DNA of 64,000 bases from an uncultured Azospirillaceae bacterium (GTDB lineage Bacteria > Pseudomonadota > Alphaproteobacteria > RF32 > CAG-239). The notes beneath the pieces were generated by a model. The model made no database searches and was not told where the DNA came from. It saw nothing but the letters and a program-made list of their open reading frames with translations. The translations under genes and the position numbers were made by a program. This document shows positions 4,219 to 56,585 of this stretch, one piece after another; position 1 is the stretch's first letter; each line of letters opens with the position of its first letter. The stretch spans positions 18,664 through 82,663 of the forward strand of contig CAZZNV010000004.1 of the NCBI GenBank assembly GCA_964655915.1, in the 5' to 3' direction.

Positions 4219-4269
4219 GGAAATTGGGTTATAACTAAATTATATTTCGAAATAACAATGAGGTTTCCT

Positions 4270-6372
4270 ATGAAAAAATTATTGCTTGCGGTCAGCGCGT
4301 TGGCTACCGTTTGTATCTCTGAGGCGAGAGCCGAGGCAGATATTTATCAGGAGAACAATTTAGCGTCATTAACGATTAATCTGCCGGACATTCAGGGGCT
4401 TAGAGTTGCCGGGGTTCAATGGATGCCGGACTACTTTGGCAGTAATTTGACGCGTTCATCTTCATCAAACTTGGAAAAAACAGCGACCTGTGCGCAATAT
4501 AAATTGTATTCGGCGTCAGATTGCCCTGAGGGCAGGGAACCTTCTGATTTGAGGGAACCGAAACCCGGTTTGAGGTGTTATGCCCGATGTGTTTGTAGCA
4601 AAACAAAATACCCTTACACAATTGCTAACTGTGTTTTGCCTAATTCTGTTGGTGGTGATTATTGTTCTGATGCAAACTACACTCTTTCTAATGAGGGTAA
4701 AGTCTTAGCTTTTGCCGATGTTGTGTCGGTTCAAAATTCGTTTGCCCTTAACAATCCTAGTCTTGCCAGTAGTGTTGCATGGGCAGAGAATAAGGTTGTG
4801 GTTTCAGGTGGAACATCAGGAAACGGTAGCTCGCCATCGAGTACGGGGAGCGTGTATGTATCTGGGTTTAGTCCGACGGGGATGTCAGCATCTGTTTCTC
4901 AGAATATGACCAATCAATATGCTGTAACTATGGTAGATAAAGTTGATGTCTCTGGTGGTTCCACAGGAAACGATGGTTCATCATCGGGGACAGGGGGTGT
5001 TTATGCTTCAGGACTTGCAAGTGGTGTAACTGTAGCAGGACTCTCTTCTAACGTTGCTCATCAGAATCTATATCTATCGTCGGCGGCTGTGACATCTGTG
5101 CAAACATCGGGAGTTCATCAGACTTTAGAAGAGAATAATGTTCCCAAATCAGCCGCGTATCGCTATACCAAATGTTCGCAAACGGTGTTTTGTAGTACGT
5201 ATGGTTACACAACAAGTTCTACGGTAACCAACAAAACTTGTACTAAGGTTGCGCCGGAATCTGTCGGCAACTTAGATAATTGTTATAACTGTATGTGTAA
5301 ATCTGAGTTTAAGTATTCTGAAGAAGAATATAACAGACTGAGACAAGTTGCAGGTTGTATTAATGGTCGCGTTTCTTGTGAAGACAGCAACGGTCTGCAT
5401 TATAAAATAGTCCTTAATGATGGTTTCTTAAATGATTGTGCTTTTGCTCCCTGTGCAGAAGGCTATACTCCGGGGTTGGCAAAAGTTACTTGTAGCAGCG
5501 ATGGAGATAAGTATGAATCTCAAGGTTACCACGGTCCGTTAATATGCGGAAAATGTACGCATCGTGCTTGTCCACAGGGATATTCCGTAGATACCGCGAC
5601 TTGTCCGAGAGGGTATCAGCTTGAAACAAACAGCACGTCAGGTGGTAAAGCTTGTGGAAAGTGTGTGGTGGCACTGTGTCCGACAGGATATGATGTAAAT
5701 ACGACTTCTTGTTCAAATGGATATAAGTTAGAAACAAACGGATATTCGGCAAGTAAGCCTTGCGGAAAATGTACCGCAACGACATGTCCGACGGGATATA
5801 ATGTAAATACGACCTCTTGTTCAAATGGGTATAAGTTTGAAACAAGCGGATATTCAGCAGGTAAGGCTTGCGGAAAATGTACCGCAACGACATGTCCGAC
5901 GGGATATGATGTAAATACGACCTCTTGTTCAAATGGATATAAGTTTGAAACAAGCGGATATTCAGCAGGTAAGGCTTGCGGAAAGTGTGTACAGATGAGT
6001 TGTTCTGATGGCGGGTATGTGGATAGTTGTCCTAGCGGTTCATCGGGCACCTCCATTGTCTTTGGTGGAAAGACATGCTATAAAGATTGTAAAGCAACTA
6101 GTGGTAGTTCAAATCAGGGAAAGACCGGTGATTGTGGAGGTTGCGTAGCCTCGGGTATGAAGATCATGACGGTTAATGGTCAGCGGAAATGTTGTCCGAT
6201 GAATTATACACCATCTAGCAATAGTACCAGCAATAATGGTTTGGGAAATTTGGGGTCCAATCCAGAAGGTACCAAAGGTTCGTTGCTTGGTTCGATTGGT
6301 GGCAGTACTATCTCGCCAGCAGACCCATGTTATCATTGTGAGGCCAGCACAGCTTTAGATACTTTATATTGA
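4270..6372 (+). CDS. Secreted cysteine-rich tandem-repeat protein (paralogue 1). Signal peptide, a Ser/Gly/Thr-rich middle, then 4 x 36-aa Cys repeats and a Cys-rich C-terminal domain.
   Basis: Track ORF 4258..6372 trimmed to ATG 4270 (GAGG 7 nt upstream). Starts MKKLLLAVSALATVCISEARA|EA. Repeats read CPTGYDVNTTSCSNGYKLETNGYSASKPCGKCTATT. The C-terminal CGKCVQMSCSDGGYVDSCPSG...CYKDCK is homologous to the 54601..56523 protein. Confidence 0.8.
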   Translation: MKKLLLAVSALATVCISEARAEADIYQENNLASLTINLPDIQGLRVAGVQWMPDYFGSNLTRSSSSNLEKTATCAQYKLYSASDCPEGREPSDLREPKPGLRCYARCVCSKTKYPYTIANCVLPNSVGGDYCSDANYTLSNEGKVLAFADVVSVQNSFALNNPSLASSVAWAENKVVVSGGTSGNGSSPSSTGSVYVSGFSPTGMSASVSQNMTNQYAVTMVDKVDVSGGSTGNDGSSSGTGGVYASGLASGVTVAGLSSNVAHQNLYLSSAAVTSVQTSGVHQTLEENNVPKSAAYRYTKCSQTVFCSTYGYTTSSTVTNKTCTKVAPESVGNLDNCYNCMCKSEFKYSEEEYNRLRQVAGCINGRVSCEDSNGLHYKIVLNDGFLNDCAFAPCAEGYTPGLAKVTCSSDGDKYESQGYHGPLICGKCTHRACPQGYSVDTATCPRGYQLETNSTSGGKACGKCVVALCPTGYDVNTTSCSNGYKLETNGYSASKPCGKCTATTCPTGYNVNTTSCSNGYKFETSGYSAGKACGKCTATTCPTGYDVNTTSCSNGYKFETSGYSAGKACGKCVQMSCSDGGYVDSCPSGSSGTSIVFGGKTCYKDCKATSGSSNQGKTGDCGGCVASGMKIMTVNGQRKCCPMNYTPSSNSTSNNGLGNLGSNPEGTKGSLLGSIGGSTISPADPCYHCEASTALDTLY
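5569..6000 (+). repeat. Intragenic tandem repeat: 108-bp period, about 4 copies (3 near-identical)
   Basis: TGTCCGAC(A/G)GGATAT(G/A)ATGTAAATACGAC recurs at 5677, 5785 and 5893, with a diverged copy at 5569. The period of 108 bp equals 36 aa. Confidence 0.85.
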
Positions 6373-6390
6373 CCTAATCTAACCTAAACA

Positions 6391-6426
6391 AAAAAACCGC
6401 GGTGGATTTATCCGCGGTTTTTTTTG
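6391..6426 (+). terminator. Rho-independent terminator (AAACCGCGG-TGGATTTAT-CCGCGGTTT plus T-run)
   Basis: 9-bp stem plus T8. About 40 nt including the hairpin are near-identical (1 mismatch) to the element 3' of the paralogue at 54556-54592. Confidence 0.75.
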
Positions 6427-6477
6427 TGGCCTATTTTACAGGGATACAGAGCTTAGGTTTTATGAGTCTGAATGATT

Positions 6478-6493
6478 TGGCACGACTTTTGCA
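6478..6493 (+). promoter_or_regulatory. Sigma-54 (RpoN) promoter TGGCACG-N4-TTGCA upstream of flgF
   Basis: Exact -24 GG / -12 GC consensus (TGGCACGACTTTTGCA) about 50 nt upstream of the flgF ATG. Alphaproteobacterial class-III flagellar operons are sigma-54/FlbD dependent. Confidence 0.65.
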
Positions 6494-6543
6494 TATATAA
6501 TGGCAACAAGTTTTAATTATCCAAAACTATTGGGGAGAATATA

Positions 6544-7287
6544 ATGGATAATACAAATTATATTGCTTTGTCGCGCCAGATGGCTTTGTGGAAACAGATG
6601 GATATTGTTTCCAACAACATGGCAAACATGAATACATCCGGTTTTAAGCAAGATGAAGCGGTGTTTACGTCTTATTTGGTGCAAACGCCGGAGGCTTTGG
6701 GGCTTGGTCGTCAGCCGTTGTTTTTTACTGAAGATTTCGGTAGCTTTCAGGACTTTTCAGAAGGACCTATTATGGTAACGGGCAATACATTTGACGTTGC
6801 TTTGCAGGGTGATGCTTTCTTTTGTATTGAGACAGATGCCGGTGAGCGCTACACGCGCAAGGGACAGTTTTCTTTAGATGCTGACGGTAAGATCGTTACT
6901 AATGACGGTGCGGTTGTTTTATCTGAAAATGATGAACCGTTTTTTATTGCTCCGGGGGAGAAGGAGATTGTTATTTCTGAAAGCGGGGAAATTATTACCG
7001 AAAACGGTTCTATCGGTCGTCTGAAACTGGCATTTTTTGAAAATAATCAAAAACTTTTAAAGGTGGCAGGAACAATGTTTGAAAATGTTGCCGACAATCC
7101 TATCACCTATGGTAATAATAACGCCCGCGTTGTTCAAGGGGCGATTGAAAAGTCTAATGTGGAACCAATTCAAGAAATGACAAGGTTGATTAATCTGCAA
7201 CGTTCTTACGAATATATTCAGCAGATGATTGATGAAGAACACGACCGAATTTCTAACACTATTTCAACCTATGCACAGCTGGCATAG
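6544..7287 (+). CDS. flgF: Flagellar basal-body rod protein FlgF
   Basis: N-terminal rod motif MDNTNYIALSRQMAL...VSNNMANMNTSGFK and C-terminal rod domain ...LQRSYEYIQQM. Confidence 0.85.
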   Translation: MDNTNYIALSRQMALWKQMDIVSNNMANMNTSGFKQDEAVFTSYLVQTPEALGLGRQPLFFTEDFGSFQDFSEGPIMVTGNTFDVALQGDAFFCIETDAGERYTRKGQFSLDADGKIVTNDGAVVLSENDEPFFIAPGEKEIVISESGEIITENGSIGRLKLAFFENNQKLLKVAGTMFENVADNPITYGNNNARVVQGAIEKSNVEPIQEMTRLINLQRSYEYIQQMIDEEHDRISNTISTYAQLA

Positions 7288-23826: not shown

Positions 23827-24912
23827 ATGAAAGTCTTAGTCGGATTAAGCGGTGGCGTAGATTCATCTGTGACGGCTTGTTTGCTGAAAGAGGCCGGTCA
23901 TCAGGTGATTGGCGCGACCATGTCTATTTGGGACAAAAAACAGACCTACAAATTAATGTCGCAGAAAGATGCCTGTTTTTCACCACATGAGGAACAAGAT
24001 ATTGAAGAGGCCAGAGCTTTATGTGAACAGTTGGATATTCCATATCATGTTATTGATTGTACAAAGCAGTATCAACAACTGGTTTTGCAAAATTTTAAAA
24101 ATGAGTACTTATCGGGAAGAACGCCTAATCCTTGTGTGTGGTGCAATTCAACCATAAAGTTTGAGGCTTTGCCACGCGGAGCAAAAGCGGCAGGAATTGA
24201 GTTTGATAAGTTTGCAACAGGGCATTATGCGCGTTTGTCGTTTGATGAAGTCGGCGGGCGTTATCGTTTACGGCGTGCTGTTGATGAGCGCAAAGATCAG
24301 AGCTATTTTATATATCGCTTAAAGCAAGAGCAACTTGCAAAAATTATGTTGCCTTTGGGAGAAATGACAAAGAATGATGTGCGAGAAATTGCCCGTAAAT
24401 ATGGTTTGAAGGTGAGTGATAAACCCGATAGTCAAGATTTTTACTCCGGAGATGTTAATGACTTGTTGCAGGCGGAACCTAAGATTGGAAATATGGTTGA
24501 TAAAAATGGTAAAGTTTTGGGACAACATCAAGGAATTTGGAATTTTACCGTCGGTCAGCGGCGTGGTCTCGGTGTGGCCGGAGCAGAGCGCCCTCTTTAT
24601 GTTATTGCACTGAATGCGGAAAAAAATGAAGTGGTTTTGGGATATGAAGAAGACGGCTATCGTGAGGCTTTGACCGTGTCCGGAGTGACTTGGCTTTCGG
24701 TTGCCGCCTTTGATAAACCGACAGAGGTTTGGGTTAAAATTCGTTCAGCGCAAAATCCGGTGAGAGCTACCGTTAATGTGCTTAATGATGAACGCGCGGA
24801 AGTTGTTTTTTATGAGAAGCAAAAAGCGGTGGCGGCAGGGCAGTCGGCCGTGTTTTATGATGAAGACGGTTTTGTTCTGGGCGGAGGCATAATTGAAAGC
24901 CATGTCGAATAA
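23827..24912 (+). CDS. mnmA: tRNA-specific 2-thiouridylase MnmA
   Basis: MKVLVGLSGGVDSSVTACLL (PP-loop) ...TPNPCVWCN... Confidence 0.9.
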   Translation: MKVLVGLSGGVDSSVTACLLKEAGHQVIGATMSIWDKKQTYKLMSQKDACFSPHEEQDIEEARALCEQLDIPYHVIDCTKQYQQLVLQNFKNEYLSGRTPNPCVWCNSTIKFEALPRGAKAAGIEFDKFATGHYARLSFDEVGGRYRLRRAVDERKDQSYFIYRLKQEQLAKIMLPLGEMTKNDVREIARKYGLKVSDKPDSQDFYSGDVNDLLQAEPKIGNMVDKNGKVLGQHQGIWNFTVGQRRGLGVAGAERPLYVIALNAEKNEVVLGYEEDGYREALTVSGVTWLSVAAFDKPTEVWVKIRSAQNPVRATVNVLNDERAEVVFYEKQKAVAAGQSAVFYDEDGFVLGGGIIESHVE

Positions 24913-25903
24913 GCTCAGTCGCTCGGATATTATTTCTCTGTTGTCAAACGAAGCTGATCAAGAGGATTTGTTTGGGCGAGCAGACAGGGTGCGGCGGCAA
25001 TATGTCGGTGATGCGGTGCATTTGCGCGGGTTGATAGAGTTTTCCAATATTTGTCGCAACAATTGTTTGTATTGCGGTATCAGGCGGGGAAATAATAAAG
25101 TTACGCGTTATCATATGCAGCCGGAAGAAGTGATTGAAACGGCACATAAAGCGGCAGATATGGGATTTAAAACCGTGGTGTTGCAATCCGGTGAGGATAT
25201 GTTTTACAGCGCGGCGGTAATGTGTCGGATTATTGAGACCATAAAAAAATTCGACGTGGCCGTGACATTGAGCATTGGTGAACGAGATTACACGGATTAT
25301 AAAGCTTTTCGCGAGGCCGGAGCAGACAGGTATCTCATGCGGATAGAAACGACGGATAGAGATTTATATCATGAACTTGACCCCGGAATGAGTTGGCAGC
25401 GGCGTTACGAATGCCTGTTGATGATTAAGGAGCTGGGATATGAACTGGGGTCAGGAATAATGGTCGGTTTGCCGCGGCAAAGTGTGGAGTCTATCGCTGA
25501 TGATTTGTTATTTTTGCGTGACTTAGAGGTGGATATGGCCGGTATCGGTCCGTTTATTCCGCATCAGGATACGCCGTTAGCCGATGAAAAGGGCGGGACG
25601 TTGTATTTGGCGTTGCGTGCGATGGCCGTTATGCGTCTTTTAATGCCGGATATTAATATTCCGGCAACAACGGCGATGGAAAGTTTGCACCCGAACGGGC
25701 GTTTGGTGGCATTGAAAAGCGGTGCTAATGTGGTGATGCCGAATGTGACGGAAGGCGAATATCGCAAACTCTATGAATTATATCCCGGAAAAATATGCGT
25801 TAACGATACTCCGTTGCATTGCAAAAGCTGTATTGGTCTGAAAATAATGAGTATCGGACGGACAATCGGTGAGGGGTATGGCGGACATATAAAACGCTTT
25901 TAA
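24893..25903 (+). CDS. Radical-SAM enzyme of the HydE/PylB/BioB subfamily (HydE-like), overlapping the mnmA 3' end
   Basis: CRNNCLYCGIRRGNNKVTRYHMQPEEV closely resembles the HydE CxxxCxYCG.RR box. Its start overlaps the mnmA stop by 11-20 nt. Could also start at ATG 24902. Confidence 0.6.
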   Translation: MKAMSNKLSRSDIISLLSNEADQEDLFGRADRVRRQYVGDAVHLRGLIEFSNICRNNCLYCGIRRGNNKVTRYHMQPEEVIETAHKAADMGFKTVVLQSGEDMFYSAAVMCRIIETIKKFDVAVTLSIGERDYTDYKAFREAGADRYLMRIETTDRDLYHELDPGMSWQRRYECLLMIKELGYELGSGIMVGLPRQSVESIADDLLFLRDLEVDMAGIGPFIPHQDTPLADEKGGTLYLALRAMAVMRLLMPDINIPATTAMESLHPNGRLVALKSGANVVMPNVTEGEYRKLYELYPGKICVNDTPLHCKSCIGLKIMSIGRTIGEGYGGHIKRF

Positions 25904-25915
25904 TCGGTTTTTATT

Positions 25916-26188
25916 TTAGTCTTCAAAGCGTTCAAATAACTTTTTTAACTCTTCGATTTTTTTGTTCTTATCTTCGCCAGAGGCAAAAGATTGGGCAACG
26001 CAATGTTGCAAGTGTTTTTGAAGAATGTTTGATTCCACGGCTTTAACCGCAGAGCGGACAGCTCGCAGCTGGCTTAAAATTTCAGGACAATAGCGCCCGT
26101 CTTCAATCATTTTTTTTATGCCTTCAACTTGTCCGGCGATACGATTGAGACGGGGAATGTTGTCTGCGTGGCAGGGATGTGTACTCAT
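25916..26188 (-). CDS. CsoR/RcnR/FrmR-family metal-sensing transcriptional repressor
   Basis: Trimmed to MSTHPCHADNIPRLNRIAGQVEGIKKMIEDGRYCPEILSQLRAVRSAV...HLQHCV. Has the His/Cys fingerprint positions of an RcnR/CsoR-like sensor. GGAGAA RBS. Confidence 0.7.
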   Translation of the reverse strand: MSTHPCHADNIPRLNRIAGQVEGIKKMIEDGRYCPEILSQLRAVRSAVKAVESNILQKHLQHCVAQSFASGEDKNKKIEELKKLFERFED

Positions 26189-26238
26189 TTCATTCTCCAA
26201 AAGAATCAGACGGCGCTTGGTTAGGCGCCGTCGATAAG

Positions 26239-26412
26239 TTATTTGTTTTTACCGCAGTTGCATTCCGGACAGCATTTATTTTCTTCTGTGCAGTGGCAGT
26301 TTTCACCACAGGTGCAGTGCTCACCACAATGGCATTCGCCATTTCCGCATTGACAATTTTCGCCACACTGGCAGTTTTCGCATTTACAGTTGGGATTTGT
26401 GCATTTGGTCAT
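26239..26412 (-). CDS. Cysteine-rich metallothionein-like small protein (57 aa, 17 Cys, 3 His). Not in the ORF track because it is under 60 aa.
   Basis: Hand translation of the minus strand: MTKCTNPNCKCENCQCGENCQCGNGECHCGEHCTCGENCHCTEENKCCPECNCGKNK*. AAGGAGAAAAAAATG RBS. Sits immediately upstream of the CsoR-family repressor on the same strand, separated by the hairpin GACGGCGC-8 nt-GCGCCGTC. Confidence 0.6.
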   Translation of the reverse strand: MTKCTNPNCKCENCQCGENCQCGNGECHCGEHCTCGENCHCTEENKCCPECNCGKNK

Positions 26413-26565
26413 TTTTTTCTCCTTATTGATTTCTTATGCATACATATACCATGTATGGGTATGTGTCAAGCCATATTTTTATTTGCTTGTTGATATGTTG
26501 TAGCCCGTGCTTGACAAAAAACTGTTCGCAATAGCATGATTTTATGGTTGGAACGGAGTAATTTT

Positions 26566-28266
26566 ATGGTCAAAATTAGCATAGTGATGCCGGTATATAA
26601 TACCGAAAAATACTTGTCAGAAACGTTAGATGCTGTTTTAGCACAAACTTTTGCAGATTTTGAGGTTATATGTGTTGATGACGGAAGCACAGACGGTAGT
26701 TTAAGGATTCTTGAAGAGTATCGAGATAAAGATGAACGCATAAAAATTGTCGTTCAGGATAATCAGGGTGTTGTGGCGGCAAGGAACAATGCTATTGCTT
26801 TAGCAAAAGGGGAATTTATTTATCCGTTGGATAGTGATGATGTGATAGCCCCGAATTGTCTGGAAAGGTTGTATGAAGTTATCACTACGACGAATAATCG
26901 AGTTGTGGCCAGTGAGGCTTGTTGTTTTGGTGAATGGAACGGTAGCTTCAGGCAACCAAAATTTACAAAATATGAAATGTATGGTTGGCACGAGCAATGT
27001 GTTGTATCTGCCTTATTTTATAAAGAAGATTTTGAGCGTTTTGGCGGGTACCGTCTTGCTTTTAACGGGTTTGGCGGTGATGACATGGATTATTGGCTGA
27101 ATTACATGGATAATGGTATGCCAATGTTTCGTGTTAAAGACTGTTTGTTTTTTTACAGGCAGAAGCTACAACAAGAAAGTGTATGGAAAAATTATAGTAA
27201 AAGCGAGTTTAAGAAAAGATTTGATTATAAAGAATCAATGTTACGCAAATATCATCCTAAAATGAAAAAGTGGGTGTTGTTGTGGAAACTGGCTAAAATG
27301 CAGTCAATCCTTTTTCAGATAAAGAGAACTGAAAATAAAATGAGCATTAGGCTGTTGAAGCTAACCCTTTTCAAAGTTAAACGTGTAAAAGGCAAGAAGC
27401 TTTATTTACTGCTAGGATTTATTCCTGTTTGGCTGAAAAAAGTTTCATCTCTTTTTTGTTATTATTTTGATTCGGTTTTAAATTTTGGAGATTTGTTAAA
27501 TCAGGATTTATTCAATTTTTTTGGAAAAAATTGTATTCGCTCTGGTATATATGATGCTGACGTCATGGCTATCGGTTCATTGCTACAAACGTTATTTCAA
27601 GAAAAAAAGCTGTCATTAATTAAACGTTTCAGGTTGCATTCTAAAAAAGCGCTTATTGTGTTGGGGAGTGGTTTTATATCTGATATGCCAGTCAATTCGT
27701 ATGTCTTAAGAAGGTTAAATGTGAAAGCTGTCAGAGGGTATCATTCATTAAATAAATTGAAGCAATTTAGTAATGTTCATATAGCGTCTGATGTTGCTAT
27801 TGGGGACCCCGGTTTGTTATCTAAATATATTGTTGATGTTTCCAAAGTTGAAAAGAAATATGATTTGGGTATTATTCCTCATTATGTAGATAAAGATAAC
27901 CCATTGTTGAGAAAAATACAGGTTAAGAATTCTATTGTTATTGATGTTCAGCAAAAACCGGAAATGTTCTTACGTCAAGTTGCCGAATGTAGACATATAA
28001 TATCTAGTGCTATGCATGGGCTTGTTGCCGCAGATTCATTGGGAATACCGAATATTAGAATGGTTTTATCGGATAAGATTATTGGCGGTGATTATAAATA
28101 TAACGACTATTATTCTGCATTTGGTTTGAGCAAACATGCAGTTATTGATTTATCGAAGCGTGATTTTTCTGAAAAAGATATACCGGATATTGTCGGGAAT
28201 TACAAAATTAAGATACAACAGGTGGAACATATCTGTAGAGATTTGATAAAAGTCTTTCCACATTAA
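26566..28266 (+). CDS. Bifunctional GT2 glycosyltransferase (N-terminal) / polysaccharide pyruvyl transferase (CsaB/WcaK-like, C-terminal)
   Basis: Trimmed to MVKISIVMPVYNTEKYLSETLDAVLAQTFADFEVICVDDGSTDGS (GGAG RBS). C-terminal half has ...NFGDLLNQDLF... and ...SSAMHGLVAADSLGIPNI..., the pyruvyl-transferase motifs. Confidence 0.65.
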   Translation: MVKISIVMPVYNTEKYLSETLDAVLAQTFADFEVICVDDGSTDGSLRILEEYRDKDERIKIVVQDNQGVVAARNNAIALAKGEFIYPLDSDDVIAPNCLERLYEVITTTNNRVVASEACCFGEWNGSFRQPKFTKYEMYGWHEQCVVSALFYKEDFERFGGYRLAFNGFGGDDMDYWLNYMDNGMPMFRVKDCLFFYRQKLQQESVWKNYSKSEFKKRFDYKESMLRKYHPKMKKWVLLWKLAKMQSILFQIKRTENKMSIRLLKLTLFKVKRVKGKKLYLLLGFIPVWLKKVSSLFCYYFDSVLNFGDLLNQDLFNFFGKNCIRSGIYDADVMAIGSLLQTLFQEKKLSLIKRFRLHSKKALIVLGSGFISDMPVNSYVLRRLNVKAVRGYHSLNKLKQFSNVHIASDVAIGDPGLLSKYIVDVSKVEKKYDLGIIPHYVDKDNPLLRKIQVKNSIVIDVQQKPEMFLRQVAECRHIISSAMHGLVAADSLGIPNIRMVLSDKIIGGDYKYNDYYSAFGLSKHAVIDLSKRDFSEKDIPDIVGNYKIKIQQVEHICRDLIKVFPH

Positions 28267-28275
28267 GGTAAAAAA

Positions 28276-29214
28276 ATGAGCATAAAAGTTAGCATCATTG
28301 TTCCAGTCTATAATGTAGAGCCATATTTGAGTAAGTGTATGGAGTCATTGTGCAATCAATCTCTACAAGATATAGAAATTATTGCAATAAACGATTGTTC
28401 ACAAGATGATAGTTTGAAAATATTAAAAAGATATGCAAAACACGACAAAAGAATCAAAATAATAAATAAAAAGAAAAATGTTGGTACGGCTAACGCGCGC
28501 AATTCAGGTTGCTCTATAGCGACAGGTGAGTACATTGCTTTTATTGATGGTGACGACTATGTTGATAAAGATTTTTATGAAAAATTGTATAAACTAGCAG
28601 TAAAAAATAATGCAGATGTAGCAAAAGGTGTAACAAAAACATTTAACGTTGATGGTTCAGTTGTTATTGCAAAGGATAATGATGATATTGTGAAACAGGG
28701 AAAGTTTGCTTTTATGGGGCATCTTTTGACTGCAATATATAAAAATAATTTAATAAAAGAAAATAATATAAGGTTTTATATAGATTTTTTCTGTTTTCAG
28801 ATACAGGTTGTTTATTTTGCAAATAAAATCGTCTGCTTAAATGATACTTTTTATAACTATGTACGCCACATCGACAGTTGCGATAGCGATATTTTCACCC
28901 TAGAGAAATGGCAAAGATTGAATTTAGGGCATGGAAATTTTATGTATGATTGGATTATGAACCATAGCACGCCTTCAGATATTAAAATATTATATCTGGA
29001 TCGCATAAAGAGTTTATATTTTTATGGGTTCAATAAGTTGGAATTAATAGATGTTCCTTTGGCATGTCGTATACTAGCATCCACTATGAAGAAAAACTAT
29101 GATTGCGGTTTTAATATAGCCGATGATAAATCGTTTATACGCAAATTGTATAGGAAAAATAAAAATACAACGTTGTTTACATATATCATTGATGTTTTAA
29201 AAGGTAGAATATAA
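28276..29214 (+). CDS. Family-2 glycosyltransferase
   Basis: MSIKVSIIVPVYNVEPYLSKCMESL...AINDCSQDDS...FIDGDD. Very AT-rich. Confidence 0.8.
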   Translation: MSIKVSIIVPVYNVEPYLSKCMESLCNQSLQDIEIIAINDCSQDDSLKILKRYAKHDKRIKIINKKKNVGTANARNSGCSIATGEYIAFIDGDDYVDKDFYEKLYKLAVKNNADVAKGVTKTFNVDGSVVIAKDNDDIVKQGKFAFMGHLLTAIYKNNLIKENNIRFYIDFFCFQIQVVYFANKIVCLNDTFYNYVRHIDSCDSDIFTLEKWQRLNLGHGNFMYDWIMNHSTPSDIKILYLDRIKSLYFYGFNKLELIDVPLACRILASTMKKNYDCGFNIADDKSFIRKLYRKNKNTTLFTYIIDVLKGRI

Positions 29215-29215
29215 G

Positions 29216-30766
29216 ATGTTTAAGATAAAAAATACTGATAAAATATTAATTATTGCACCACATCCAGACGATGAGGCCCTTGGTTGTGGGGGATTTATGT
29301 TAAAATACGCAAAAAATATAGATAGTTTTTGTTTTTTATCTAGCGGTATATCTCCTGATGCAAAAGAGAAATCTGATATTCGTATTTTTGAATGGAATAC
29401 GGTACAAAAAGCTATTGGGTGTAACAATCTTGGGATTATAGAACTTTATGGTGACAGACCTTTGTTGCCAAGAATTATAGATAATATGCAAAAATATTTA
29501 AGGATTTTGAATACAAAAAAATATGATTATATTTTTATGCCTCACTTAAACGATAATCATCCTGAACATCAATATATTTCTAGAACAATAATGAGACAAA
29601 TTTTGTTACATAATGGCTATAAAAAAAAGCTTAAAATTTGTTTTTATGAAGTGTGGTCACTACTAAGTAGTCCTGATATTTATTTTGAAATAGATGCGGA
29701 TAAAAAAAGTAAGTTGTTGTCTTTATATAAGACACAATGGAATATTTGCAATCTTCCTAAGAAAATTATTGGTTTAAATTGTTATCGAGGTGTTGATGCT
29801 GGTTTTAAAGAATATGCAGAGGCATTTGAGGTAATCGGTATAGATGGTTATTTAACAAGTACAAAACCGATTGAAGAAATACTAGGGGGGGAAGAGAAAA
29901 AACTTGTATTATCAAATCGTTTATATCCAAACTTCATAAGTAACAGATTTGATTTACTATACGATGATTACGAATTATACGATTTAGGTACAGGTGTTGT
30001 TCCTGTAAAAATTGATGGTAAAGTGGCAAAGCTGGGAATGACACTGCAGATTTATTCTGATGAAACTTTACATAAATTTTATAATTTATTATTTGCAAAA
30101 CACCCATCTCTTGAAACAATAATAATAAAACATTCTTTATCGTCCTATGGAATAACTAGCAAAAATAATCAATTTTATCATTATCCGTACTGGCATATAG
30201 AACTTCCCGTAAGTGTAGAAGATTTTAGCAATAAATTATCAGCTCGTGTTCGTTATAATACAAAATGGTATCCGAAGAAAATTAGTGAGGATATTGGTGA
30301 TTTAAAAATTAGTCGAATTTCTGCTCAAGATACTACCGAAAGTATGGGTAAACAATTTTTTGCATGGAAAAAAGAAAGTCATAATTGTGATTATAATATG
30401 TCAACTAAAGAATACTTAAAAACATACGGCGTAACGGAAACCTATTTAATGTATATTGGTTCTGATTTGCTCGCAATTGGATTTATTTGTACAACAGGTG
30501 AAAATGTATATTTTGAGCAATTTGCTTATTCTCAAGAAGCAAAATATAAAAAGTATTCATTAGGGATGGTGCTTTATTATCACATAATATGTGATTTAAT
30601 AAGGTTAAAAAAGAAAAATTTCTATTTATCTGGTGGTTATTTAGATTATAAAAAAAGATATAATGGTGTATGTCAGTATACATATTCAGGGACAATTTCC
30701 AGAAAGAATAAACTTGAGCATAAACATCACTCATTTTGGTGGCATTTGAGGCATATGAAGTTTTAG
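29216..30766 (+). CDS. Fusion protein: N-terminal LmbE/PIG-L-family deacetylase plus C-terminal GNAT/FemAB-like acyltransferase fold
   Basis: N-terminus ILIIAPHPDDEALGCGGFML...HLNDNHPEH is the LmbE zinc-site motif. The C-terminal 250 aa resemble the BioF2/CelD-type GNAT fold. Very AT-rich. Confidence 0.55.
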   Translation: MFKIKNTDKILIIAPHPDDEALGCGGFMLKYAKNIDSFCFLSSGISPDAKEKSDIRIFEWNTVQKAIGCNNLGIIELYGDRPLLPRIIDNMQKYLRILNTKKYDYIFMPHLNDNHPEHQYISRTIMRQILLHNGYKKKLKICFYEVWSLLSSPDIYFEIDADKKSKLLSLYKTQWNICNLPKKIIGLNCYRGVDAGFKEYAEAFEVIGIDGYLTSTKPIEEILGGEEKKLVLSNRLYPNFISNRFDLLYDDYELYDLGTGVVPVKIDGKVAKLGMTLQIYSDETLHKFYNLLFAKHPSLETIIIKHSLSSYGITSKNNQFYHYPYWHIELPVSVEDFSNKLSARVRYNTKWYPKKISEDIGDLKISRISAQDTTESMGKQFFAWKKESHNCDYNMSTKEYLKTYGVTETYLMYIGSDLLAIGFICTTGENVYFEQFAYSQEAKYKKYSLGMVLYYHIICDLIRLKKKNFYLSGGYLDYKKRYNGVCQYTYSGTISRKNKLEHKHHSFWWHLRHMKF

Positions 30767-30988: not shown

Positions 30989-31064
30989 TGGTAGCGAGGG
31001 AGGGATTCGAACCCACGACACAAGGATTATGATTCCTCCGCTCTACCGACTGAGCTACCCCGCC
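30989..31064 (-). tRNA. tRNA with CAU anticodon (elongator tRNA-Met, or tRNA-Ile2 if lysidinylated); CCA encoded
   Basis: Minus-strand read: GGCGGGG-TA-GCTC-AGTCGGTA-GAGC-G-GAGGA-ATCATAA-TCCTT-GTGTC-GTGGG-TTCGAAT-CCCTC-CCTCGCT-A-CCA. Cloverleaf closes with two G-U pairs in the acceptor stem and one U-U mismatch in the T stem. Confidence 0.8.
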
Positions 31065-35814: not shown

Positions 35815-37644
35815 ATGAATGAACAAGTTGATAATATTGAAAATTGGATAAAAAAAATAAACAAAGCTGAAGGGTGTTACCAGAAATATTATGGAGTGAT
35901 TAAGAAAACTCGAGATGCGTATAAGGGGAAAGGGCTGTCTTTTGCCGGAGAAGAAAAATACAATATTTTTTGGTCGTCGGTCGAGACGTTAAAGCCGTTT
36001 TTGTATTTTAAGCAGCCTAAACCCTTTATTCAACGCAAAGGGCAAAATAACGGAGAGGCCGAACGCTTGGCTTGCAAAATTCTGGAAAATGCGCTGGAAT
36101 GGGATTTGGAGCAGTTTGATTTTGACAGTGTTATCAAATATGCCCGTAACGATTTTTTGATTTCCGGTTTGGGTTTGGTGTGGGAACAATATAAACCGGA
36201 GTTCATTGAAATAGCTAATCCGGAAACGGTATCCGGAAAAGAGGAGGAAAATAATCAAGGCGGTTTTTGGGCAATTAAAACCGGTGAAAAAGTTGAAAGT
36301 GTCTATATTGATCCGGCAAATTTTATTTGTGATTGTGATAAGGTTGGAATTTGGGAAGATGTAGAGTGGATTGCCCGCAAAGTGTATATGAATCGAGCGA
36401 AAGCGATTGAATGTTTCGGTTTGGCTGCGGAAAATTTGTTTCCTGCAATTTTGGCTGAACGAAATGACGGGCGGGAAATTTGCATTTATGAAATTTGGGA
36501 TAAGCCATCACGTAAAGTTTATTGGTTGTCTAAAGAAGCTCCTTCTGCGTTTTTGCGGGTATCTGATGATCCGTTGAAGCTGAGCGGATTTTTTCCTTGT
36601 CCTAAACCGATTATGGCGACAGTTACTAATGACAGTATAATTCCAGAGCCTGATTATTGCATGATTCAGGGAATGATTAATGAGCTTAACGGTATCACAA
36701 CCAGAATGAGGCTTACAATGCAGGCTTTGAAGGTGAGCGGTGCGTATGATAAGTCATTTCCGGAACTGCATTCTATTTTGGACAAGGATATTACATTAGT
36801 TGCGGTCAGTGATTTTCAGAAACTTAAAGATTGCGGTGGTATTAGAGGTATTATTGATTTTGCACCGATTGAACAATATATCGCGGCGCTGGAGGCATTG
36901 GCCAGACGGCGTGATGATATTGTGGAGGATATTTTTGAAGTTACCGGTGTGTCGGATATTATGAGAGGAAACTCAAATGTTGCGGAAACGGCGACGGCTG
37001 TTGCCAAAAAAACAAATTTCGGTACATTGCGCAATCAAGACCGCCAAAACGATATGCAACGATTTATTCGTGATTTGTATAAAATTAAGGCGGAAATTAT
37101 ATGCGAGCAATTTTCAACAGATGTATTGGCAAGCTTTTTAAGTGAAGAGGAACGTGAAAATACGGCGGTTGTTTATCAGGCAATTGCGTTGCTGAGGGAA
37201 GATAAAATGCGCGGTATGGTGTTGGGTATTGAAACAGATACCGTGATAAATCAGGAGGAAGAAAACGCTAAGGTTATGAATGGTATAAACGCTGTTAACG
37301 GGTTGATTGCTTCGGCTTTTGATAAGGTTTCGTCACAACCAGCGTTGCTTCCGCTATATAAACAAATGATTCATGTTGTTGTTTCTTCTTTGCCAAAGGC
37401 TCGACAGTTTGAAGGTGTTTTGGATATGGTCTTTGACGAAGTGGAGCGCGAATTAAACAAGCCTGAAGTCGGTGTTCAGCCGTTGCTTCAAAATAATCCG
37501 CAGATGGATTTGGCGCACAAGCAACTGGATATGAATTATGAAATCAATCGCGAGAAAAATATGCTCAAAGCCAGAGAACTTGACTTGAAGGAAAGAGAAC
37601 AAAATTTAGAAACGGTAAAAGAGTTTAACAAAGGTAATAAATAA
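35815..37644 (+). CDS. Putative portal protein (609 aa)
   Basis: Size and position after large terminase; C-terminal coiled-coil. No motif-level confirmation. Confidence 0.5.
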   Translation: MNEQVDNIENWIKKINKAEGCYQKYYGVIKKTRDAYKGKGLSFAGEEKYNIFWSSVETLKPFLYFKQPKPFIQRKGQNNGEAERLACKILENALEWDLEQFDFDSVIKYARNDFLISGLGLVWEQYKPEFIEIANPETVSGKEEENNQGGFWAIKTGEKVESVYIDPANFICDCDKVGIWEDVEWIARKVYMNRAKAIECFGLAAENLFPAILAERNDGREICIYEIWDKPSRKVYWLSKEAPSAFLRVSDDPLKLSGFFPCPKPIMATVTNDSIIPEPDYCMIQGMINELNGITTRMRLTMQALKVSGAYDKSFPELHSILDKDITLVAVSDFQKLKDCGGIRGIIDFAPIEQYIAALEALARRRDDIVEDIFEVTGVSDIMRGNSNVAETATAVAKKTNFGTLRNQDRQNDMQRFIRDLYKIKAEIICEQFSTDVLASFLSEEERENTAVVYQAIALLREDKMRGMVLGIETDTVINQEEENAKVMNGINAVNGLIASAFDKVSSQPALLPLYKQMIHVVVSSLPKARQFEGVLDMVFDEVERELNKPEVGVQPLLQNNPQMDLAHKQLDMNYEINREKNMLKARELDLKEREQNLETVKEFNKGNK

Positions 37645-54600: not shown

Positions 54601-56523
54601 TTAGGATCGTACAGCAAAATAATACTGAAATTCAACATCAACCCCATCCACGTTAATTGAACCACTTGGCTCATGATCTTGATCCCAGAATTTAGTACCT
54701 TGATTGACGTTCTTGTGAGATGTCTCTATACAATTACTTTGCTTCCAAGTCTCAAAATTATCACCGTAACAGCATTTGAAGGCGGTATAACCCAATTGGG
54801 TAGATGAACACCCATTACTGAGGGTAATCTCTGTTCGGGCGCTGTTATCATTCATGGATGCACTCAGATGGTCTGTCTGGGTGGCTATGTAATAACTATT
54901 ACCATAAGTAAAATACATATTAGGCACAGTGATATCAAAACTATGGTTATCTCTAAATGCTGCCAGAGATGCCTTCTGATCGGCAGTATATTCGGAAACA
55001 TCCCACCACTCAAATTCGAATTTCATAGGAATTATTGTAGTGTTGTTTCCACCATTACGAGCAGCGCCTTGATTAAGATAACCCTTAACAACAAGATGAG
55101 GGTTAATACAGCCTTTGACGCAAGATTGTCCGTTATAATTATATGATTTACCATACTGACCAACGGGGCACTTATCTAAATATCCGCCTGTTGCACAAGT
55201 TGCATTTGACTTACAATCCTTGTAACAGGTTAACCCGCTCCTCGGTGTGACAGGTGTACAGGTTTGCCCACTGGGGATGGTTGTTTTGTAAGAACTGTTA
55301 TAATCTGTACAGGTTTTCAAAGTACAACCCTTGTAGCATGTCAAACCGCTTCTTGGTGTAACAGATGTACATTTGTAGTCTGTTGGAATAGAAGTCTTGT
55401 AGGAGCTATTATAATCTGTACAGGTTTTCAGAGTACAACCTATATAGCATTTCTTTCCACCATAGCTAATGGGGCTGCTGGTTGGCTTGTAGTCTTCACT
55501 GCAATTCTCAACATACCCACCTTCAGAACAACTCTTCTGTACACACTTTTTGCATACCTTACCTGCTGAATAATATTGGGTATTTTCTAACTTATAGCCT
55601 GTTGAGCAGGTTTTATTTGTAGATTGTCCTTCCGGACATGGCGTCACAGTACATTTTCCGTCAGTTGAATAGCCTGCTGTCCACTCGGTTACCTTATAAC
55701 GGGTCACCAAATTACTACCGCAACCGGTCGAACAACTATCTGCAGATCTAGCACAAGTCGGCGGAGTAGAATAAGGATAATTACTTGCCGTACAACTTGC
55801 ATCATTGTTCAGACAAAGACATCGACAACATTCGGAAGTAGGACACTCTCTTGTCGGAGCAGTGTTTGGACAAGAAGGTATATTTGCATATCCGTTAAGA
55901 CAACATGTTCCATTCGCCTGCCTGTTATAACCGCTTTTACAACCGGTTTGCTTATATTTACCCTCACACACATCGCATAGAGCACCATACGGACATGACG
56001 ATAAAGTAAAATCAGAACCGCAACCGCAATCGGAATAATAAGTTCCACTCGGTGCTGATGACGGAGCCATCATAGACACCTCACTAACAGTCGCTTTCGC
56101 ACCGACCGTCGCGCTGGTCAGCTTTTTGCAACTCGTACCTCCGATAAGCTTGGGAGATGTACAGTTGCCTTTGTGATAGGTAAACAAATCCATGTTACAA
56201 TCACAAGCTTTATAACAAGTAACTCCCGGTGCGGGTTGAGTTTTACCGACACCAACCGTGCCGCTTGGACATTCGCTGAAATAGTTTCCGTATGAGGCGC
56301 AGGTCTTGGTATTTCCTCCGCCGTTTGATTGAGAGGTGCGACCTGTTAAAGCAGCCTGATAATCCGGCAAGAAATGTGATCTCGCCAGTTTATAAGCTCC
56401 GTCTTGCGACGGTTCGGAAAGCATTATCTCCTCACTTAATAAACCCGTGTTAATTTCCAATGTTTTGGCGTTTGCGCTATAAGCCGCAACAGCCGAACAA
56501 ACGACTACTAATAATTTTAACAT
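54601..56523 (-). CDS. Secreted cysteine-rich tandem-repeat protein (paralogue 2)
   Basis: Trimmed to MLKLLVVVCSAVAAYSANA|KT (GAGGTG RBS). Two 37-aa repeats CTLKTCTDYNSSYKT.IP....CT.VTPRSGLTCYK. The region ...CKKCVQKSCSEGGYVENCSEDYKP...CYKDCK aligns with paralogue 1. Confidence 0.8.
   Translation of the reverse strand: MLKLLVVVCSAVAAYSANAKTLEINTGLLSEEIMLSEPSQDGAYKLARSHFLPDYQAALTGRTSQSNGGGNTKTCASYGNYFSECPSGTVGVGKTQPAPGVTCYKACDCNMDLFTYHKGNCTSPKLIGGTSCKKLTSATVGAKATVSEVSMMAPSSAPSGTYYSDCGCGSDFTLSSCPYGALCDVCEGKYKQTGCKSGYNRQANGTCCLNGYANIPSCPNTAPTRECPTSECCRCLCLNNDASCTASNYPYSTPPTCARSADSCSTGCGSNLVTRYKVTEWTAGYSTDGKCTVTPCPEGQSTNKTCSTGYKLENTQYYSAGKVCKKCVQKSCSEGGYVENCSEDYKPTSSPISYGGKKCYIGCTLKTCTDYNSSYKTSIPTDYKCTSVTPRSGLTCYKGCTLKTCTDYNSSYKTTIPSGQTCTPVTPRSGLTCYKDCKSNATCATGGYLDKCPVGQYGKSYNYNGQSCVKGCINPHLVVKGYLNQGAARNGGNNTTIIPMKFEFEWWDVSEYTADQKASLAAFRDNHSFDITVPNMYFTYGNSYYIATQTDHLSASMNDNSARTEITLSNGCSSTQLGYTAFKCCYGDNFETWKQSNCIETSHKNVNQGTKFWDQDHEPSGSINVDGVDVEFQYYFAVRS
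55250..55480 (-). repeat. Intragenic tandem repeat, 111-bp period, 2 copies
   Basis: TTATAATCTGTACAGGTTTTCA(A/G)AGTACAACC at about 55298 and about 55409. Confidence 0.75.
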
Positions 56524-56556
56524 GTCGCACCTCATTTGTGTTTTGAAACATCTTTT

Positions 56557-56585
56557 ATTGTAATCTACATTTTGCAACGTGTCAA
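56557..56585 (-). promoter_or_regulatory. Sigma-70-type promoter TTGACA-N17-TACAAT for paralogue 2
   Basis: Minus strand reads TTGACACGTTGCAAAATGTAGATTACAAT. Paralogue 1 has TTGACACATTATAAAATGTAAGTTACAAT. Confidence 0.6.

Follow-up and report, generated by a model that had tools for sequence, protein, structure and literature searches.

A cysteine-rich metallothionein-like gene and a CsoR-type repressor gene form a putative self-regulated metal-buffering operon in uncultured gut Alphaproteobacteria

We analyzed a 64,000-nt stretch of contig CAZZNV010000004.1 (GenBank assembly GCA_964655915.1; hereafter the window) from an uncultured Azospirillaceae bacterium, in which a first-pass annotation had drawn attention to a short minus-strand open reading frame (ORF) for a metallothionein-like peptide immediately upstream of a gene for a metal repressor of the CsoR/RcnR family. 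The exact translation of this ORF, MTKCTNPNCKCENCQCGENCQCGNGECHCGEHCTCGENCHCTEENKCCPECNCGKNK, contains no aromatic or aliphatic residues, and the ORF is preceded by the strong ribosome-binding site (RBS) that had been described. A promoter, a predicted operator, the peptide gene, a hairpin, and the repressor gene, csoR, follow one another on the same strand (Table 1). On the basis of the evidence presented below, we assign a probability of roughly 0.8 to the reading that the locus is a two-gene, self-regulated operon comprising a metal sensor and a metal buffer.

When the peptide was used as a single query against protein collections, a set of 5.8 billion clusters yielded 1 match and a set of 1.84 billion representatives yielded 5; these few matches already revealed a further copy with csoR behind it (L001, L002, and L003). 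This sparseness was misleading, and the family was uncovered at the DNA level. A small alignment was used to scan one genome per species, 246 pattern matches were acquired, and 113 of these were confirmed as relatives by tblastn; the locus counts given here cover the 80 loci that were fetched. According to the titles of their NCBI records, nearly all of the relatives belong to uncultured Alphaproteobacteria, 'Azospirillum sp.', or Rhodospirillales metagenome-assembled genomes (MAGs), and they derive from human, mouse, rabbit, and ruminant guts. The peptide ORF was intact in all 80 fetched copies, with 7-22 Cys in each, and a GGAG-type RBS occupied the same site in nearly all of the related loci. 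Comparison of the window ORF with eleven relatives gave proportions of nonsynonymous differences (pN) of 0.08-0.17 and of synonymous differences (pS) of 0.71-0.98, with most substitutions at codon position 3 (e.g., 1/7/34 by position). The substitution pattern is that of a genuine gene under coding selection, in agreement with the first-pass call. The antisense frame in codon-complement register showed the reverse relationship, with pN of 0.22-0.33 versus pS of 0.04-0.20. The 104-aa plus-strand ORF is open because the Cys, Asn, Glu, Gly, and Lys codons of the peptide yield no stops on the complementary strand, and the coding sequence lacks Leu or Ser codons from which antisense stops could arise. 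Since pN is far below pS in the sense frame and exceeds pS in the antisense frame, the plus-strand ORF is a by-product of the peptide coding sequence, and its earlier dismissal as spurious was justified.

The product of the downstream gene matched PF02583 with E=1.5e-28 and 99.4 bits (cut-off 22.8), as anticipated from the initial family assignment. A csoR homologue was present in 66 of the 80 loci, lying directly downstream on the same strand in ∼53, separated by one gene in 11, and fused in frame to the peptide in 2. The gap between the peptide gene and csoR is 2-17 nt in ∼30 loci, and the two genes must therefore be co-transcribed there. The in-frame metallothionein::CsoR fusions (L081 5001-5384, L083 5001-5384, and P0034) are 127 and 125 aa in length; such fusions arose at least twice, with P0034 independent of L081/L083. 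The sole label of the fused protein at NCBI is 'metal-sensitive transcriptional regulator' (MBR4106921.1). Taken together, conservation and gene order indicate that both genes are real, under selection, and linked across more than 60 species. The two-gene metal unit suggested at first pass thus finds support in the synteny, the natural fusions, the coding selection, and an operator that co-varies with csoR. Two of the MAGs carry the system twice: L021 and L083 are both from MAG RUG10873, and L033 and L084 lie 28 kb apart on one contig of RUG13362, where the L084 peptide is truncated to 28 aa. The presence of two systems per MAG would fit paralogues that handle different metals.

The related loci share a common layout upstream of the peptide gene, consisting of TTGACA, 2-4 nt, a TAC-N9-GTA palindrome (typically TACCC-N5-GGGTA), and a TAT-rich −10 element. 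The first box starts 2-4 nt past the −35 hexamer in 61 of 70 loci, and many of the promoters carry a second box ∼26 bp further on. At least one TAC-N9-GTA box was observed in 66 of 67 csoR-linked promoters (L084 being the sole csoR-linked promoter without it) and at least two in 40, in comparison to a background of 1.6% of 95-nt windows. Loci lacking csoR had a box in 4 of 15 cases, two of which are contigs that end just past the peptide. The stricter form TACC-N7-GGTA occurred 67 times in these promoters versus 8 times elsewhere in 715 kb, and 5 of the latter 8 sites are the same promoters displaced by over-extended ORF starts. On these counts the operator is specific to the peptide promoter and co-varies with csoR. 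Its TAC-X9-GTA type and its position between −35 and −10 are those of Cu(I)-type CsoR proteins, and the same form is seen in the published boxes of Streptomyces lividans CsoR (ATATACCCCTNAGGGGTATAT, with TAC-X9-GTA as the general rule; PMC3902906), RicR (TACCCCGCTGGGTA; PMC3944814), and B. liaoningense CsoR (TATACCCnnnnnGGGTATA; PMC5057107). Two properties of the window promoter weigh against regulation through this site. The operator TACCCATACATGGTA is weak, being a single copy with one mismatch to TACCC-N5-GGGTA, and a consensus promoter scan of the window did not call the −10 hexamer, which we placed because of its position and the GGTATAT that is conserved in relatives. When up to two mismatches to TACCC-N5-GGGTA were allowed, the window contained 11 matches versus 10.9 expected. 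Two other one-mismatch sites in the window were rejected as regulon members; they lie inside genes (pheS and an ORF of unknown function).

Table 1. Features of the metallothionein-like gene and csoR locus (window coordinates)
Feature	Coordinates	Strand	Remarks
−35 hexamer TTGACA	26464..26469	minus	TTGACN conserved in related promoters
CsoR-box operator TACCCATACATGGTA	26447..26461		TAC-N9-GTA palindrome; fills the 17-bp −35/−10 spacer; predicted
Putative −10 TATGTA	26441..26446	minus	17 nt after TTGACA; alternative TATATG at 26448-26443
Shine-Dalgarno AAGGAGA	26418..26424	minus	5 nt 5' of the peptide ATG
Metallothionein-like gene	26239..26412	minus	ATG 26412; stop TAA 26241-26239; 57 aa, 17 Cys, 3 His
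GC hairpin GACGGCGC-ctaaccaa-GCGCCGTC	26232..26209	minus	8-pair stem; between the peptide gene and csoR
T-rich tail TGATTCTTTT	26208..26199	minus	5 T in 8; directly 3' of the hairpin; scan class terminator-like
csoR	25916..26188	minus	90 aa; ATG 26188; RBS GGAGAA 26198..26193; 50 nt 3' of the peptide gene
Spurious 104-aa ORF	26179..26493	plus	exact codon-complement register with the peptide ORF

The first-pass annotation had reported a GC hairpin without a U-run between the two genes. The hairpin was found, but the lack of a U-run held only in part because a weak T-tail is present and the element scored as terminator-like. The 50-nt spacer of the window has a folding energy of −19.5 kcal/mol, and in ∼20 loci that include the clade of the window a spacer of 47-107 nt always contains a strong hairpin (−12 to −29 kcal/mol). 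The hairpin sequences of these loci are unrelated, and some are full terminators. Retention of the structure at the same position while the sequence is not retained argues for a function of the hairpin. It is likely to be a partial terminator or a 3' stabilizer, either of which would yield more peptide than repressor.

A run of 17 Cys codons followed by a terminator-like hairpin could also signify a Cys-codon leader peptide for hairpin attenuation, and the radical-SAM gene that adjoins csoR in the window and in L086, and flanks the module in L065, L066, and L004, could signify a radical-SAM-modified (SCIFF-like) precursor. We consider either role highly improbable. The ∼30 loci with the shortest intergenic gaps have no hairpin, Asn6, Pro7, Glu12, and Gly17 are conserved with low pN, the Cys-rich domain occurs in frame with CsoR and with ferredoxins, and the downstream gene encodes a repressor rather than a cysteine-pathway enzyme. 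The radical-SAM gene matches the HydE equivalog (374 bits versus a cut-off of 254.6), is convergent with the module, and is absent from most loci. The leader-peptide or ribosomally synthesized and post-translationally modified peptide precursor interpretation was rejected as largely refuted by the hairpin-less loci, the conserved non-Cys residues, the fusions, and the HydE identity.

The adjacency of hydE, which encodes an [FeFe]-hydrogenase maturase, was seen at 24893-25903 of the window, at 4476-5501 of L086, at 3869-4870 of L065 and L066, and at 2-211 of L004. It takes three arrangements, one of them in a genome labelled Gastranaerophilales, and could reflect coincidence, shared ancestry, or block transfer.

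Across 76 distinct sequences, the peptide family is 28% Cys, followed in abundance by Asn, Lys, Gly, Glu, and Asp. None of the sequences contains Phe, Trp, or Leu, and the share of Tyr, Val, or Ile is at most 0.1% each. The peptides range from 28 to 72 aa with 0-6 His. Their N-terminal block, M-x-K-C-N-N-P-N-C-K-C-E-N-C-Q-C-G, is nearly invariant and is followed by a variable number of C-x-C-G-x-x-C units. Metallothioneins are defined operationally as proteins of ∼3.5-14 kDa with high Cys content in C-x-C, C-x-x-C, or C-C motifs and few or no aromatic residues. With 57 aa, of which 17 are Cys in C-x-C and C-x-x-C motifs, and no aromatic residues, the window peptide can be classed as a metallothionein by size and composition, and metal clusters are predicted. 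Modeling by AlphaFold with a 25-sequence alignment gave no fold (predicted local distance difference test score 58.6) and no predicted secondary structure, as would be expected for a metal-free thionein.

No match to the peptide was obtained in Pfam or NCBIfam at E values up to 1. A profile search of all solved structures returned only the snail Cd-metallothionein 6QK5 (E=0.002) and the sea-urchin metallothionein 1QJL, and the former match is dominated by composition (bias ∼26 bits). The bacterial family resembles these two proteins in its C-x-C-G-x-x-C-x-C spacing, lack of aromatic residues, and ∼30% Cys, but only the bacterial family has the N-terminal block described above, and the resemblance may not reflect common ancestry. 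The SmtA structure 1JJD did not appear among the profile matches at E values up to 10. The first-pass annotation had suggested a comparison of the peptide with SmtA/BmtA, and no kinship was seen at the sequence level, with no match to PF02069, 1JJD, or any curated metallothionein model. SmtA/BmtA with SmtB likewise pairs a small bacterial metallothionein with a metal-released repressor, but that repressor is of the ArsR/SmtB family whereas the one here is CsoR, and the SmtA-type domain is quoted at 15.7% Cys whereas the window peptide has 30% and is devoid of hydrophobic residues. A match to the family model was looked for and not found, which places the peptide outside the SmtA/BmtA family.

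Seven of eight free-standing family sequences that were looked up are absent from a collection of 15 billion proteins, and no gene was called at the peptide site on a Logan contig of identical sequence to the window, as was foreseen by the initial remark that annotation misses such genes. A family profile matched 42 clusters, none of which is named beyond 'hypothetical protein', and no description of the family was found in the open-access literature. The family is nearly absent from protein databases because its genes are short and compositionally odd, and gene callers overlook it in more than 100 gut and rumen bacterial species. By its sequence the peptide is a member of an apparently undescribed metallothionein family. 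The top match of the exhaustive search, P0002 (645 aa), contains 11 tandem repeats of NPCGNPSCKCPTCECGTGCTCG… and resembles a eukaryote-like multi-domain metallothionein. Four single-cluster ferredoxins (PF13370/PF13459; P0039, P0044, P0057, and P0061, the last at L091 778-1119) carry a C-terminal tail of C-x-C-G-x-x-C repeats and appear to be ferredoxin::metallothionein-like fusions.

The window CsoR ranked best against RicR in NCBIfam (74.7 bits), ahead of FrmR (41 bits) and RcnR (37.8 bits), and among solved structures it scored best against Geobacillus CsoR (1e-16) and S. lividans CsoR (55.9 bits), with InrS close behind (55.4 bits). The DNA-binding motif RLXR is present as RLNR. All 70 sequences have Tyr33, Cys34, His59, and Cys63, and 69 of the 70 have Glu80. 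In the alignment, the RYC and H-x3-C motifs of the Geobacillus and S. lividans proteins coincide with Cys34, His59, and Cys63, which correspond to the C-H-C ligand pattern that is characteristic of Cu(I) sensors (Cys36, His61, and Cys65 in the M. tuberculosis protein, MtCsoR). Tyr33 and Glu80 are the counterparts of Tyr35 and Glu81 of MtCsoR, second-shell residues with an allosteric role. Published work mentions that two residues in the second shell of MtCsoR are important for allostery but does not identify them by name. On ligands and operator the repressor is of the C-H-C CsoR type with a CsoR box, rather than of the RcnR or NreA type, and the family assignment made at first pass can be refined in this manner.

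An additional residue, His7, is shared by all 63 sequences in which the N-terminus is present, so that His7 with Cys34, His59, and Cys63 is readable as the H-C-H-C set of the Ni(II)/Co(II) sensors NreA, NcrB, and the InrS-like proteins, with the peptide buffering Ni or Co. The nearly equal scores for InrS and S. lividans CsoR, the existence of NreA-type sensors in Alphaproteobacteria, and the ability of DmeF-type cation diffusion facilitators (CDFs) to export Co and Ni would fit such an assignment. We nevertheless judge it improbable. The operator of NreA is TCC-N9-GGA (TATCC...GGATA; PMC12724321), whereas the operator here is TAC-N9-GTA, and neither the NreA-type operator nor a Ni/Co exporter neighbour was found at these loci. 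The CDF proteins encoded near the peptide (see below) matched ZitB better (179 bits) than DmeF (101 bits). The RYC motif and the second-shell Glu are conserved as in Cu-sensing CsoRs, whereas InrS has RPC, and the RicR score is far above that of RcnR. Thiolate-only metallothioneins are moreover poor ligands for Ni and Co, which counts further against this assignment.

The first-pass proposal of Cu/Ni/Co or Zn was thereby narrowed, on the basis of sensor residues, operator, and exporter neighbours, to Cu(I) versus Zn/Cd. Cu(I) is the probable metal for the window copy. It is favoured by the ligand set together with the second-shell residues, by the operator type, by the RicR-MymT precedent, and by a relative linked to copZA. 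This actinobacterial-type relative (P0060; L088 1404-4186) is a 61-aa peptide from high-GC DNA with two CSNPNC...CTCGPDCSCG units, and its gene comes directly after, and in the same orientation as, copZ and a Cu-type copA (the copA product matched TIGR01511 at 515 bits, above the cut-off).

Several observations weigh against Cu(I). No copA or copZ was found in the 64-kb window or in the alphaproteobacterial loci, and the copZA linkage is confined to the distant actinobacterial relative; the neighbours are instead CDF genes, feoAB, and a P1B-2 ATPase gene, and so the CopA/CopZ neighbourhood of a Cu(I)-type CsoR was not found. A ZitB-like CDF exporter (TIGR01297, 240 bits) is encoded within or after the peptide-csoR pair in ∼20 of the 80 related operons (e.g., L010 5181-7195, L014, L015, L018, L020-L022, L048, L050, L051, L058, L059, and L071). 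The order is metallothionein-csoR-CDF, at times followed by a gene for a metallo-β-lactamase-fold hydrolase that often accompanies the CDF, or metallothionein-CDF-csoR; gaps are 14-17 nt, and the CDF gene has no operator of its own. This packing suggests divalent-metal control by a C-H-C CsoR. A Zn/Cd-type P1B-2 ATPase is encoded a few genes upstream in the close relatives L005, L013, and L017. The conserved His7 is unusual, as Cu sensors have been described as having no conserved ligand near the N-terminus (PMC8643695).

These observations are consistent with a system of the same architecture that senses and buffers Zn(II)/Cd(II) or several metals, in which C-H-C plus His7 would bind a tetrahedral ion and a Zn/Cd-thionein would work with a CDF exporter. 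The 0-6 His of the peptides and the identity of the best solved-sequence match as a Cd-metallothionein point in the same direction. B. liaoningense CsoR, which has the same form of box, is induced ∼90-fold by Zn and ∼135-fold by Cd (PMC5057107); its response to all three of Cu, Zn, and Cd means that the metal cannot be read from the shared box. We regard this alternative as possible yet clearly less probable than Cu(I). The window and many other loci have no CDF, and the large ORFs of the 64-kb window include no linked exporter, only housekeeping genes. The P1B-2 and FeoAB neighbours have no operator, Cu elicits the strongest response from characterized C-H-C sensors that use this box, and one related peptide is linked to copZA. 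By alignment, the W position of InrS and Thermus thermophilus CsoR lies ∼5 residues N-terminal of His7, and because of this offset His7 cannot settle the metal.

With Cu(I) as the most probable inducer in the window, the operon could function as follows. At low metal levels, apo-CsoR tetramers would occupy the TAC-N9-GTA box in the −35/−10 spacer of the single promoter and block RNA polymerase. A rise in thiophilic metal would load Cys34/His59'/Cys63', and CsoR would leave the DNA. The strong RBS would then direct synthesis of the 57-aa peptide, whose 17 Cys and 3 His, in the absence of a fold of its own, would wrap around metal-thiolate clusters and lower the free metal. The hairpin and weak T-tail would either allow part of the transcription to reach csoR or protect a short upstream mRNA, so that peptide would exceed repressor. 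Fresh apo-CsoR and the peptide competing for metal would finally shut the promoter again. Which metal is bound and in what stoichiometry, what the hairpin does, and how fast the feedback acts are the inferred parts of this scheme.

The closest functional analogue, by comparison of published systems, is RicR-MymT of M. tuberculosis. MymT is likewise a small, Cys-rich, originally unannotated Cu(I) metallothionein, it is repressed by a C-H-C CsoR paralogue acting through a TACCC...GGGTA palindrome, and the repressor is autoregulated in both cases. The window peptide differs from MymT in being encoded by the first gene of the repressor's own operon and in occurring in gut Alphaproteobacteria rather than Actinobacteria. 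In M. tuberculosis, mymT and ricR lie apart from each other, and MymT contains some hydrophobic residues and far fewer Cys. No curated metallothionein model was matched, and no mycobacterial protein was among the 42 clusters and 5 representatives, in searches that included no alignment to a verified MymT sequence.

The closest regulatory analogue is the alphaproteobacterial CsoR-cueA divergon of B. liaoningense. Its repressor is also ∼90 aa in length and of the C-H-C type (Cys33/His58/Cys62 versus Cys34/His59/Cys63 in the window), its box has the same form and overlaps the promoter, and both repressors are autoregulated, but the regulated partner is a P-type ATPase exporter and not a metallothionein, and the sensor responds to all three metals named above. 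The Csp3 and Ccsp proteins likewise act as Cys-rich sinks for metal in the cytosol, and a Cu-sensing repressor controls some Csp genes; Ccsp in Streptomyces is under CsoR. Csp proteins are pre-folded four-helix bundles that form tetramers, whereas the window peptide has no predicted secondary structure.

The principle is not new, since CsoR-family control of a metallothionein is known from RicR-MymT; what is new on this known principle is the metallothionein family and the self-contained operon layout. Reviews and a 2026 paper list bacterial metallothioneins as the SmtA/BmtA type, MymT, and few others, and such proteins are regarded as rare. Here a third, sequence-unrelated family was found in 113 DNA stretches, and we consider a new, widespread, sensor-coupled metallothionein family to be probable. 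A new metal specificity for the CsoR clade, with a Zn/Cd member among presumed Cu(I) sensors, is speculative. The compound proposal, a new family of eukaryote-like composition hard-wired to its own sensor together with a Zn/Cd-responsive C-H-C CsoR bearing His7 in the CDF-containing operons, is put forward tentatively as the less likely outcome.

If the operon works as proposed, the family would be standard equipment of gut and rumen Alphaproteobacteria, forming a closed buffer-sensor loop in a poorly known, uncultured clade of the gut and rumen, and the peptide::CsoR fusions would imply direct hand-off of metal from buffer to sensor. The metal-buffering capacity of the gut microbiome would then be under-counted, a relevant point given that both copper and zinc serve as feed additives and that the host deploys them as well. 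The CsoR and ferredoxin fusions provide a handle on how buffer and sensor share metal, and the promoter, operator, peptide, and repressor make up a compact, portable, metal-inducible module of ∼560 bp. The finding may be more surprising to annotators than to metal biologists.

Some further genes were noted near the module. A small membrane protein is encoded between the peptide gene and csoR in three loci (L065 5264-5578, L066 5229-5582, and L067 5224-5610); it combines the motif HF[VI]CCG[VL]P with a further cluster of Cys residues (CCC in L065 and CNGCC in L067), and looks like MerF/MerT with no Pfam match. L067 also encodes, on the minus strand at 5965-6843 and convergent with csoR, a 292-aa protein with a long Cys/His-rich tail (…CCGGSCGCGGHHHEEHECACGHSHSEEHECCGGHHH…). 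The recurrent neighbours u32, u47, and c15 and a 100-aa ORF gave no Pfam match, and in the window the ORFs at 4258-6372, 35815-37644, and 54601-56577 (704, 609, and 658 aa) gave none at E values up to 1e-5. The G+C content falls to 0.30 at 28001-30000 of the window, as compared with ∼0.42 elsewhere. This low-GC stretch overlies a run of glycosyltransferase, PIG-L deacetylase, and GNAT genes (26536-30766), is followed by tRNA-Met (30989-31064), and may be an acquired surface-polysaccharide island.

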